64,000 nt of DNA from an uncultured Steroidobacter sp. (lineage in GTDB: Bacteria > Pseudomonadota > Gammaproteobacteria > Steroidobacterales > Steroidobacteraceae). Position numbers and translations under genes: made by a program. The stretch lies in NCBI GenBank assembly GCA_937958065.1, contig CALFXI010000058.1, positions 17,487 through 81,486 of the forward strand, read 5' to 3'. A model generated the notes under the pieces. That model was not told the origin of the DNA and ran no database searches. It saw only the letters and a list, made by a program, of their open reading frames with translations. Shown piece after piece: positions 61,159-63,112 of this stretch. How positions within the stretch are numbered: position 1 is the first letter of the stretch; each line of letters opens with the position of its first letter.

Positions 61159-62258
61159 AAGAAACCGTGCACCTGCGCGAAGTAGAACCTGCGATTCTGC
61201 TGATCGTTCTGCGGAATGCCGTCATAGATCCGAGCCCCGACGCGCAGCTGCAGGAACTGGATCGGGAAATGTTCCCAGACCAGACTGAAGCGATTCTGCT
61301 CGTCCTCGTCCACGTCCGTGTCCGGATCGAAATACTCCGCCGTCAGCTTCAGGTTCTGGCCTTTGACCATCAGCCAGTTCGCTTCGAGCAACCCGACCCA
61401 TTGCTTGCGCTCGGTCGGACCGAGCGTTCTGTCCATGATGTAGTCGGCCTCGCCCAGCCACACGACGGGCCCGATGCGAACGCCGGCGAACAAACCTTGC
61501 ATCTGGCGATTGCCCGCATCCGTGTGATTGTGGTTGAACCCTGCGCCGAACCTCCAGACGTTCTGCACATACTCGCCACGCAAGCTCACTTGCTTGCCCT
61601 CGTCGGTCTCGTCCCCGCCCGCGGCGCCATTGGTCACGGCGAGCTGCGCGGTCCAGCTCGTTGCCTCGTATCCGACCTGCACGCCTCGATCCGGCGTCGT
61701 GAAGTTGATGCCGGTCACCTGTCGAATGAATGCGGTGTCGTCCTGGATGCGCAATCCATAGGGCAGAAAAAACTGCCCGGCCTGAAAATTCCACTGCTGG
61801 CCCTTGCTCGTGTAACGCGCGAACGCTTCGAGATTGGTGCTGCCGCCTGGCGCGAGACGCTGATCGACATAAACCGCGAGCCGGTCGGGAATCGGAATGA
61901 CGGCGAGATACGCCCGCATCTCCTCGATGTCGAACTCATTCGTCGAGGGGTTATGCGGAACATCGGTGTACGTTGCATTCGTGCGCAAGTTCCCTCCGAG
62001 CGCCACGAACGAATTCAACATGCCGGTCCACGCCTCCGTTCCGGCCCCTTCGATGCGACGCGCCGGCAATGCGGTCTGCGCATAGGCGTTCCCGAATACA
62101 TTGCGCATGCCGCCGCCGGTCGGGTTGAAATGACAGCTGGCGCATTTCAAGCCTTCGCGGACAGCGAGGTACGGCTCGGCATGGGCGATATGAAGAGCGG
62201 AGGCGACGACCAGTGCGACGAGCGCGCAGACTTTGCGAAGCACGGTGCCCGACTTCAT
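61155..62258 (-). CDS. Monoheme cytochrome c-porin fusion (Cyc2-like outer-membrane cytochrome)
   Basis: Signal AHA then [16 protein letters not shown]; remainder amphipathic beta strands with GQFFLPYG; ends in Phe. Confidence 0.7.
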   Translation of the reverse strand: [367 protein letters not shown]

Positions 62259-63112
62259 TGAGCCATCTCCACGGTGAAGCGCAGAACGAAATCGCCGCCG
62301 GGCGCGCCGTCCCCATCGCCGTCGATGGGCCGGGCCTGCAGATCGGCCATCGCGACTGGATCCGTGCCACGAATGCGCAATTCGTAGGAATCCGCAGCGA
62401 GCGGCGCGACACGAGGAGTAATCGCGAGAACTGTGGGCAAATCGGACCGCACCACCGCGTCGACCGGGACGTCATGTTCATTGCCGGAATCGAAACTGCC
62501 GTCGCCGCCGCTGGCACGCAGCTCGATCAGGTTCGACTGCATCAGCGATGTATCCAGCTCGACGTTCGAGGTGATGACGACGTCACGCACAGGCGCGGAC
62601 ACAGTCTCATTGCGCGCCGGCGATATCGCCGTCAACTGTACGAGCTCGAAGCGCGAGTTCGCGCTGCCTCCTGCTGCCATGGTGTTCGCCGCACCGTCCG
62701 TGATCCATTGTCGAATGACGGCGATCGTTTCCTGAGGCAACGGCGGCAGATTGAGCGGCATGCGTCCGCCCACGGCCGCAGTACCCTCGAGCTTCTGAAT
62801 CAGATAACTCGCGTCGGGATTGCCCGGCTGAACTCGTAGCATCGAGGGCACTTCGACGCTCGGCGCATTCACGAGCAGCGCATAGGATGCGCCTTCATCG
62901 AGTCGCAAGCCCAACGGCGCAGCGGCGCCCGCATGACAGGCGGTGCACACGGGGGTGAAAACGTTGTCCTGGATGGATTTGAAGTCCGGCTGCAGTGCGC
63001 CGCCACTGCTCTCGCCAAGCGGCCGGCCGTTCTCATCGAGACCTCGTCCATCGCCGGCGCAGGCCGCAAGCAGACACGTGGTGCACAGTGCGCAGAGCTT
63101 CGCCTTCCTCAT
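62255..63112 (-). CDS. Monoheme cytochrome c lipoprotein with C-terminal Ig-like domain
   Basis: Lipobox LAAC; CTACH..GLRLD..PGNPDASYLIQKL..GRMP..IRQW; then ISPARNE..VVITSNVELD Ig-like region; ATGA overlap with the downstream gene. Confidence 0.8.
   Translation of the reverse strand: MRKAKLCALCTTCLLAACAGDGRGLDENGRPLGESSGGALQPDFKSIQDNVFTPVCTACHAGAAAPLGLRLDEGASYALLVNAPSVEVPSMLRVQPGNPDASYLIQKLEGTAAVGGRMPLNLPPLPQETIAVIRQWITDGAANTMAAGGSANSRFELVQLTAISPARNETVSAPVRDVVITSNVELDTSLMQSNLIELRASGGDGSFDSGNEHDVPVDAVVRSDLPTVLAITPRVAPLAADSYELRIRGTDPVAMADLQARPIDGDGDGAPGGDFVLRFTVEMAQ

Follow-up and report, generated by a model that had tools for sequence, protein, structure and literature searches.

Cyc2, the main genetic marker from which microbial Fe(II) oxidation is inferred in genomes and metagenomes, is a fused monoheme porin whose heme motif follows directly on the signal peptide and precedes a 16-strand OprO/OprP-like barrel. 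In Acidithiobacillus ferrooxidans, Mariprofundus PV-1 and the Gallionellaceae, a c-type cytochrome gene adjoins that of the porin, and its product, a soluble periplasmic diheme protein (Cyc1 or c4), is the presumed electron acceptor. A second Fe(II) oxidoreductase, FoxE of the photoferrotroph Rhodobacter ferrooxidans SW2 (PDB 5MAB), is likewise a soluble diheme protein and is encoded in foxEYZ together with a pyrroloquinoline quinone (PQQ) protein and a transporter, while the MtrCAB, MtoAB and PioAB systems place decaheme cytochromes in 26-strand outer-membrane barrels. Here we describe a gene pair from an uncultured Steroidobacter sp. (GCA_937958065.1, contig CALFXI010000058.1, positions 17,487-81,486 of the forward strand; these 64,000 nucleotides (nt) are the window referred to throughout), in which a short relative of Cyc2 is preceded by a gene for a cytochrome that combines a FoxE-like heme module with a predicted lipid anchor and a C-terminal immunoglobulin (Ig)-like domain.

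A conserved pair of overlapping genes

The two genes lie on the same strand and share four nucleotides:

62255-63112, minus strand: cytochrome gene, encoding a predicted lipid-anchored monoheme cytochrome of 285 amino acids (aa) with a C-terminal Ig-like domain (open reading frame (ORF), translation, homologues, alignments A1 and A2)
61155-62258, minus strand: heme-porin gene, 367 aa, with signal peptide, CXXCH at nt 62130-62144, 16-strand barrel and C-terminal GFF (AlphaFold2, Foldseek, hhalign, motif statistics)
62255-62258, minus strand: ATGA stop/start overlap of the cytochrome gene with the heme-porin gene (sequence reading)

Read on the plus strand, positions 62255-62258 are TCAT, which supplies both the TGA of the upstream gene and the ATG of the 367-aa downstream gene, as an earlier note on this DNA had it. 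That note had also called for a survey of operon conservation, and far from being rarely co-located, the two genes were found side by side almost throughout. A scan of a one-genome-per-species collection returned 418 stretches with a relative of the cytochrome, not all of which were checked for an adjoining porin; the locus counts given here refer to the best 80 of these 418, which are anchored on the cytochrome and extend down to 43% identity. In 78 of the 80 loci the cytochrome gene is followed immediately, in the same orientation, by a porin gene, one exception falling at a contig end, and two look-ups anchored instead on the porin (P0226 and P0220) both recovered the same partner with a 4-nt overlap. 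Among the 75 loci in which it was measurable, the median distance from the stop codon of the partner to the signal-peptidase site of the porin was 74 nt, approximately the length of a signal peptide, and 44 of the 75 could have the 4-nt overlap. We conclude that the pair is conserved and translationally coupled and, to judge from the overlap, probably co-transcribed. The loci span Steroidobacter, Peristeroidobacter, Povalibacter, Woeseiaceae and other gammaproteobacterial metagenome-assembled genomes, and the hosts of relatives of the pair belong to soil, compost, plant-associated and marine-sediment lineages.

The cytochrome partner is not the usual companion of Cyc2, in keeping with what the earlier note had supposed when it set the protein apart from soluble partners such as Cyc1. 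Among 120 canonical Cyc2 loci (L081-L200, 732 kb), a single ORF matches the partner profile, and it lies ~4 kb away rather than adjacent to the porin. The usual same-strand neighbour in these loci is instead a diheme cytochrome of ~200-240 aa, and a lipobox-like site was present in only 5 of 27 neighbouring cytochrome ORFs. Because it is nearly absent from canonical Cyc2 loci, the tethered partner is specific to the short porin subfamily described below.

In about 20 of the 80 loci the partner is a larger protein, with the order cytochrome-Ig-cytochrome or longer, such that a second heme module is encoded just before the porin gene (L034, L047, L050, L051, L053-L056, L059, L061, L063, L068, L072-L074, L076 and L078 carry partners of this type). 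Such partners raise the question of how electrons would travel from one heme to the next across a whole Ig domain.

Architecture of the porin and the cytochrome

The porin has the layout of Cyc2, namely a signal peptide, an N-terminal CXXCH and a 16-strand OprO/P-like barrel. Since the porin profile matched no sequence in the PDB, a fold search was needed; the AlphaFold2 model contains 16 strands after a low-confidence heme peptide of ~55 residues, and its Foldseek matches are 16-strand porins, OprP and OprO among them, the same two proteins that have been reported as structural templates for Cyc2 (PMC8406198). For direct comparison, 77 full-length proteins (387-542 aa) were taken from the 120 metagenomic loci, which had been selected by the pattern FAR[QK][TY]xxxCxxCH. 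Profile-profile alignment of the porin family (A3) with these 77 Cyc2 sequences using hhalign gave a probability of 96.2% in local mode (E 2e-9) and 98.3% in global mode (E 1e-13), and aligned the porin heme motif to AVPSFARQTGxxCxxCH of Cyc2 with identical spacing. In addition, AxPx[FL]A is present in 168 of 184 porin homologues, six residues from the heme Cys as in Cyc2. Thus the 16 strands, the N-terminal CXXCH and the profile-profile match bear out the suggestion that the neighbour is a Cyc2-type fused heme-porin, and its sequence places it as a remote, shorter sister subfamily of Cyc2, with members of ~348-395 aa (367 aa in the window) compared with 387-542 aa in the Cyc2 set. In most of the Cyc2-pattern matches in L081-L200, three residues separate FAR[QK][TY] from the first heme Cys; the published account places the motif '5 amino acids upstream', and the difference is probably one of counting. 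The Met that follows GGG in the porin was considered as a distal heme ligand and rejected, as the position is occupied by Met in 142 homologues, Leu in 25, Lys in 10, Gly in 4 and Gln in 1.

Screens in current use accept a protein as Cyc2 only if it has PxFAR[QK][TY] and is 365 aa or longer (PMC8406198), and would thus miss the short sister family entirely; most Cyc2 proteins have 400 aa or more. Neither family is rare: more than 2,400 porin homologues were scored, and the cytochrome has more than 2,100 homologues at E≤1e-3 and 7,611 clusters at 50% identity (E≤1e-3), and is therefore not a chance ORF. In databases members of both families are named 'hypothetical protein', 'porin' or 'cytochrome c domain-containing protein'. 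A plasmid collection held no porin homologue at E≤1, and the heme domain of the cytochrome matched only three Novosphingobium hypothetical proteins there.

The cytochrome itself is divided as follows:

63059-63112, minus strand: putative lipoprotein signal peptide, lipobox L-A-A-C, Cys18, Ala at position +2 (sequence reading, conservation)
62993-63058, minus strand: tether, residues 19-40, motif A-G-x-G-x-G-L-D-E-N-G-R-P, predicted to be disordered (A1/A2; predicted local distance difference test (pLDDT) <50)
62684-62992, minus strand: class-I c-type cytochrome module of the FoxE/PSCyt1 type, residues ~41-143 (invariant ligands, PDB profile search, Pfam)
62258-62638, minus strand: Ig-like (Big_5/CopC-like) beta-sandwich, residues ~159-285 (AlphaFold2, Foldseek, Pfam in relatives)

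The start codon was placed at the ATG at 63112, with a Shine-Dalgarno-like GGGGTGA on its 5' side; a longer, GTG-initiated ORF (63211) was rejected, as its extra N-terminal stretch has no counterpart in orthologues. The N-terminus, MRKAKLCALCTTCLLAAC followed by AG, was read as a lipoprotein signal peptide: it has a charged n-region, a hydrophobic h-region and a lipobox of the form [LVI][ASTVI][GAS]C. Cys18 is kept in at least 90% of 48 aligned close homologues (A2), and a lipobox-like site was found in 107 of 149 representatives of the cytochrome family. In Escherichia coli, the Lol rule holds that a +2 residue other than Asp leads to sorting to the outer membrane. As the +2 residue in this family is Ala, Gly or Ser rather than Asp, the lipidated cytochrome would by that rule be sorted to the outer membrane.

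The 40 N-terminal residues were modelled as disordered (pLDDT <50). Within the tether, G20, G22, G24, L25, G29 and R30 are invariant in both A1 and A2, and N28 is invariant in A1 and at least 90% conserved in A2. By a strict pattern, A-G-x-G-x-G-L-D-x-N-G-R-P follows the lipobox Cys in 43 of 76 porin-adjacent partners. We considered the post-Cys peptide GxGLDxNGRP as a universal porin-docking motif and rejected it, since in ~20 porin-adjacent partners plain poly-Gly/Pro runs of 15-35 residues take its place. Linker length across the partners is 20-45 residues, and what the sequences have kept is a lipid anchor with a flexible linker behind it rather than any particular peptide for docking.

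Beyond the tether, a single heme site, CTACH (C56/C59/H60, nt 62933-62947), is followed ~60 residues later by the distal Met118 in GGRMP (nt 62759-62761). The two Cys, the His and the Met are invariant in the 48 close homologues and in 43 diverse heme-domain sequences (A5), and covalent heme attachment is predicted for the cytochrome as for the porin. A profile of the full protein found FoxE (5MAB) as its sole solved relative (E 3.3e-4), and a broader domain profile found FoxE at E 3.3e-11, followed by the C-terminal heme domain of the hydrazine synthase alpha subunit at E 8.4e-6. Both FoxE repeats align to the heme module over the CxxCH, the R-M-P segment with the distal Met and the C-terminal W-I-x-x-G-A helix. 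For the FoxE homologue of R. ferrireducens, which is 65% identical to PDB 5MAB, a modelling paper describes both hemes as His/Met-coordinated (PMC10654088). The top Pfam family is PSCyt1 (PF07635), the planctomycete cytochrome type, which 25 of the 43 diverse members match at E≤0.01. The window protein itself falls below the cut-off of 22 bits, with 15.4 bits for the full cytochrome and 18.6 bits for the isolated heme domain; its relatives P0101 (29.5 bits) and P0244 (33.6 bits) pass, and because of these and the 25 matching members the relationship holds at the level of the profile. The AlphaFold2 model of the cytochrome, built on a 48-sequence alignment, was dropped as a basis for fold claims about the heme domain on account of its low confidence there. 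The family is modular, with cytochrome-Ig-cytochrome proteins and arrays that reach seven CXXCH sites (eight matched stretches) in 1,830 aa, and the heme module also occurs in many proteins without an adjoining porin.

At the C-terminus, residues ~160-285 form a beta-sandwich (pLDDT 84-95) that Foldseek matched to CopC/PcoC (template-modelling score ~0.8), the BIg domain of LdtMt2, the S-layer protein SbsC and Ig-like domains of sulfite dehydrogenases. Relatives of the cytochrome match Pfam Big_5, and P0101 matches Big_5/CopC. Because no His or Met is conserved in this domain, in which conservation is confined to Asp, Gly, Asn and Glu, it is not a copper site of the CopC type. It contains a DxDxDG-type loop, IDGDGDG (aa 263-269, nt ~62306-62326), and a second acidic loop, SGGDGSFDSGNE, which together may form a site for Ca2+ or another divalent metal; the DxDxDG-type loop is not kept in every lineage (e.g. 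L201).

Much of this anatomy had been anticipated. The lipobox (LAAC, with Cys18), the single CTACH with a distal Met in GRMP and the Ig-like C-terminus were all recovered where the earlier note had placed them. Its assignment of the heme to the planctomycete-cytochrome type stands for the family, in which PSCyt1 ranks first, and not for the window protein on its own score. The description of the Ig-like domain as a stalk had to be given up, because the order is lipobox Cys, ~22-aa linker, cytochrome (~41-143), linker and Ig-like domain (159-285), so that the latter lies distal and it is the flexible linker that ties the heme domain to the anchor.

Promoter motif, neighbours and other features of the window

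Upstream of the cytochrome gene, the following features were found:

63145-63173, minus strand: promoter-like motif TGAAC-N17-GCACTCA, 33 nt before the start codon of the cytochrome gene (window motif search, orthologues)
63185-63214, plus strand: second copy, TGAAC-N18-GCACTCA, facing the divergent gene (window motif search)
63256-64000, plus strand: divergent lipoprotein gene with Big_7 and CHRD domains, running off the end of the window (sequence reading, orthologue in L001, Pfam)

The 64-kb window contains the strict motif TGAAC-N16-19-GCACTCA just twice, where 0.00 occurrences would be expected; the two copies are inverted with respect to each other, one facing each divergent gene. The copy on the 5' side of the cytochrome gene is kept in at least 14 orthologous loci, and no sigma-70-like promoter was found in the 143 nt between the two divergent genes. 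A related sequence, GAAC-N18-GCACTC, lies directly upstream of a gene for a sigma factor of the extracytoplasmic-function (ECF) type in L001, L002 and L202. A relaxed pattern, GAAC-N16-19-GCACNC, was discarded as promoter evidence because it is non-specific (86 matches versus 46 expected), and the argument rests on the strict motif and on where it lies. Both divergent operons may therefore belong to the regulon of the ECF sigma factor of a companion cluster, as these motifs suggest.

That cluster (L001, 932-4284; L202, 9176-12110) comprises a Gcw_chp barrel, the ECF sigma factor, a zf-HC2 anti-sigma factor and an S8 peptidase. When all ORFs of the 80 loci were clustered, the recurrent neighbours were the ECF sigma factor (40 loci), the zf-HC2 anti-sigma factor (36), the S8 peptidase (36) and the Gcw_chp barrel (36); ECF genes lie within 6 kb in only about half of the loci. 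The C-terminus of the anti-sigma factor matches the Fervidolysin N-terminal prodomain family and is subtilase-prodomain-like, and the cluster as a whole suggests that a protease controls when the sigma factor is set free.

Of the divergent gene, only the first 745 nt fall inside the window. Its complete orthologue in L001 (4404-~5860, minus strand) has a Big_7 domain, a pair of CHRD domains and, at the C-terminus, a cytochrome module of the FoxE/PSCyt1 type, and by tblastn a divergent upstream match to the cytochrome module was found in ~45 of the 80 loci.

On the other side of the pair, the porin gene converges on a DUF3280 gene (60634-61158), with the two stop codons overlapping within the palindrome CTAG (61155-61158), so that there is no room for a terminator between them. 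The DUF3280 gene was considered as a part of the system and rejected, as it adjoins the porin in only 1 of 80 loci. Further away, a PET-hydrolase-like alpha/beta hydrolase (58948-59814, plus strand; PF12740, E 4e-119) is followed by a lipase-chaperone-like gene (59884-60576, plus strand); the two adjoin the porin in L002, L004 and L015, where the hydrolase is 92-94% identical. The remaining neighbourhood includes a secreted pentapeptide-repeat protein (56264-57037, minus strand; PF00805, E 5e-39), a Porin_4 general porin (57119-58555, plus strand) and a sugar-oxidation cluster (43614-54488, plus strand) with a 3-keto-disaccharide hydrolase-like protein, three GFO/IDH/MocA oxidoreductases, a TonB-dependent receptor and an 875-aa DUF7133-HEAT-cytochrome c protein (51861-54488); a second TonB-dependent receptor lies upstream of it (38934-42128). 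This cluster is unrelated to the cytochrome-porin pair.

Possible roles of the pair and comparison with known systems

We propose that the cytochrome is an outer-membrane-anchored, periplasm-facing His/Met carrier that would serve as the dedicated first electron acceptor of the downstream heme-porin, the pair forming a two-component outer-membrane electron-uptake module in which, as the earlier note had supposed, the cytochrome may dock on the barrel; we regard the chances that this is correct as about even. The porin would carry its single heme on the N-terminal peptide, at the periplasmic end of the 16-strand barrel, where a reduced donor, extracellular or entering the pore, would reduce it. 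Biochemical work has characterised Cyc2 as an Fe(II) oxidase (PMC8406198), and because the nearest characterised relatives of both proteins are Fe(II) oxidases, Fe(II) is by homology the likeliest donor. With its lipid anchor in the inner leaflet and a tether of 20-45 residues, the cytochrome would stay next to the barrel; its FoxE-like heme would pick up the electron at the periplasmic mouth, and the cytochrome would then hand it to soluble periplasmic carriers or terminal oxidases encoded elsewhere. The Ig-like domain could act as a spacer or contact module, and the operon would presumably be switched on by an alternative sigma factor of the ECF type, together with the divergent operon for the Big-CHRD-cytochrome lipoprotein.

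Several observations weigh against this proposal. The cultured hosts Steroidobacter, Peristeroidobacter and Povalibacter have been described as heterotrophs, and we found no report in the literature of Fe(II) oxidation by them. A carrier tethered to the outer membrane cannot cross the periplasm by itself, and the conserved neighbourhood contains no gene for a redox partner, be it soluble or in the inner membrane. The porin has no invariant distal heme ligand, and the Cyc2 consensus, AXPXFAR[Q/K][T/Y] upstream and PXL downstream of CXXCH (Keffer 2021), is matched incompletely, as none of 184 porin homologues has PxFAR[QK][TY] and none has PXL. AlphaFold2 modelled the cytochrome domain poorly (pLDDT 34-63), so that its fold rests on sequence profiles. 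The stretch was found only in DNA metagenomes, with no RNA run among them. Finally, no fusion of partner and porin occurs among 389 sequences examined, and Rosetta-stone gene fusion was accordingly set aside as evidence for the pairing.

Alternatively, the cytochrome could be a surface-exposed, MtrC-like lipoprotein that trades electrons, in either direction, with insoluble or macromolecular substrates such as minerals or humics, the porin heme relaying them across the membrane and the Ig-like domain with its DxDxDG loop touching the substrate. In mtrC-mtrA-mtrB the lipoprotein cytochrome gene comes first, and the order of lipoprotein cytochrome and porin-cytochrome here mirrors it. The Ig fold resembles those of S-layer SbsC and of Big_5 domains in surface proteins, and arrays of cytochrome and Ig-like domains of the length reached in this family are typical of extracellular proteins. 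Lipoproteins can be threaded through barrels, as RcsF is with OmpA/C/F, and the post-Cys peptide conserved in most members could be an export or threading signal of this kind. However, that peptide is exchanged for poly-Gly/Pro in the ~20 porin-adjacent partners noted above, and no Slam, type II secretion system (T2SS) or other gene for surface-lipoprotein export was found in the conserved neighbourhood. The N-terminal heme peptide of the 16-strand barrel begins on the periplasmic side, and hemes a whole Ig domain apart are too distant for direct electron transfer. We therefore consider a surface-exposed cytochrome unlikely.

An ECF-controlled module for envelope stress or redox sensing, in which the three heme lipoproteins and porins detoxify Fe(II), other reduced metals or oxidants at the outer membrane, or signal the extracellular redox state to the anti-sigma/S8 switch, and which does not conserve energy, could be envisaged as well. 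The ECF sigma factor, zf-HC2 anti-sigma factor, S8 peptidase and Gcw_chp barrel co-occur with the pair in 36-40 of 80 loci, the common motif faces both operons and recurs in similar form before the sigma gene (L001, L002 and L202), the cluster is without respiratory genes, and the heterotrophy of the cultured hosts would fit. Yet about half of the loci have no ECF genes within 6 kb, monoheme cytochromes with His/Met ligation are not typical sensors or peroxidases, and the homology of both proteins points to electron transfer in Fe(II) oxidation, with which detoxification is nevertheless still compatible. We regard a stress or sensing role as improbable. That the lipoprotein instead folds, inserts or heme-loads the porin without a role in electron transfer would fit the strict co-occurrence and translational coupling as expected of a dedicated factor, but is very improbable given that none of the four heme ligands (C, C, H and M) varies within the family, that the heme module occurs in many proteins not adjoining porins, and that canonical Cyc2 needs no such factor.

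If the cytochrome is a dedicated, lipid-tethered FoxE-like acceptor, as we propose, it would represent a different way of getting electrons off an outer-membrane heme and would link two families of Fe(II) oxidases that have so far been studied separately. A bolder version, on which we would place little weight, is that of a 'mini-Mtr': a minimal two-heme conduit across the outer membrane of Steroidobacteraceae and Woeseiaceae, abundant heterotrophs of soil and sediment, which would switch it on through a dedicated sensor of ECF sigma factor, anti-sigma factor and protease and use it for electron exchange with Fe(II), minerals or humics outside the cell, the lipoprotein being surface-exposed or threaded through the barrel. 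Were it true, iron and extracellular electron metabolism would extend to lineages not counted as iron oxidisers, and the pair would be a new marker recognisable by sequence. Because several hosts of the pair have been cultured (Steroidobacter agaridevorans, S. flavus, S. gossypii, Peristeroidobacter soli and Povalibacter uvarum), the hypothesis is directly testable.

Comparison with described systems places the pair nearest to Cyc2 and its acceptors, with which it shares the fused monoheme porin, the 16-strand OprO/OprP-like barrel, the heme motif right after the signal peptide and the adjoining gene for a c-type cytochrome. It differs in the partner, which is encoded upstream, is translationally coupled to the porin and is a monoheme lipoprotein of another family, with a FoxE/PSCyt1-type heme module and an Ig-like domain, in contrast to the soluble diheme Cyc1 and c4. 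FoxE is the closest solved relative of the heme module, but compared with that soluble diheme protein the cytochrome described here has one heme, a predicted lipid anchor, an Ig-like domain and a porin partner, and foxY and foxZ are absent from its neighbourhood. The PSCyt1 family and the hydrazine synthase alpha heme domain (5C2V) belong to the same domain family by profile, although PSCyt1 usually occurs with PSD1 and PSCyt2 in large planctomycete proteins. With MtrCAB, MtoAB and PioAB the pair has in common an outer-membrane barrel combined with cytochromes and a lipoprotein cytochrome gene that precedes the barrel gene; however, it has two single hemes and a 16-strand barrel in place of their decaheme cytochromes and 26-strand barrels, and there is no sequence relationship between them. 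Cytochrome c_y of Rhodobacter capsulatus joins a membrane anchor through a long flexible linker to a class-I His/Met cytochrome domain, and is similarly an anchored carrier confined near its partners, but it is held by a transmembrane helix in the inner membrane, where it serves bc1 and cbb3, rather than by a lipid anchor predicted in the outer membrane beside a porin, and has no homology to our cytochrome beyond the heme motif. Searches of the literature on Cyc2 partners, lipoprotein cytochromes, FoxE and iron oxidation in Woeseia or Steroidobacter turned up no description of the pair, or of a lipoprotein partner of the FoxE/PSCyt1 type for a Cyc2-like porin. We regard the pair as a variant of the fused cytochrome-porin theme rather than as a new kind of system.

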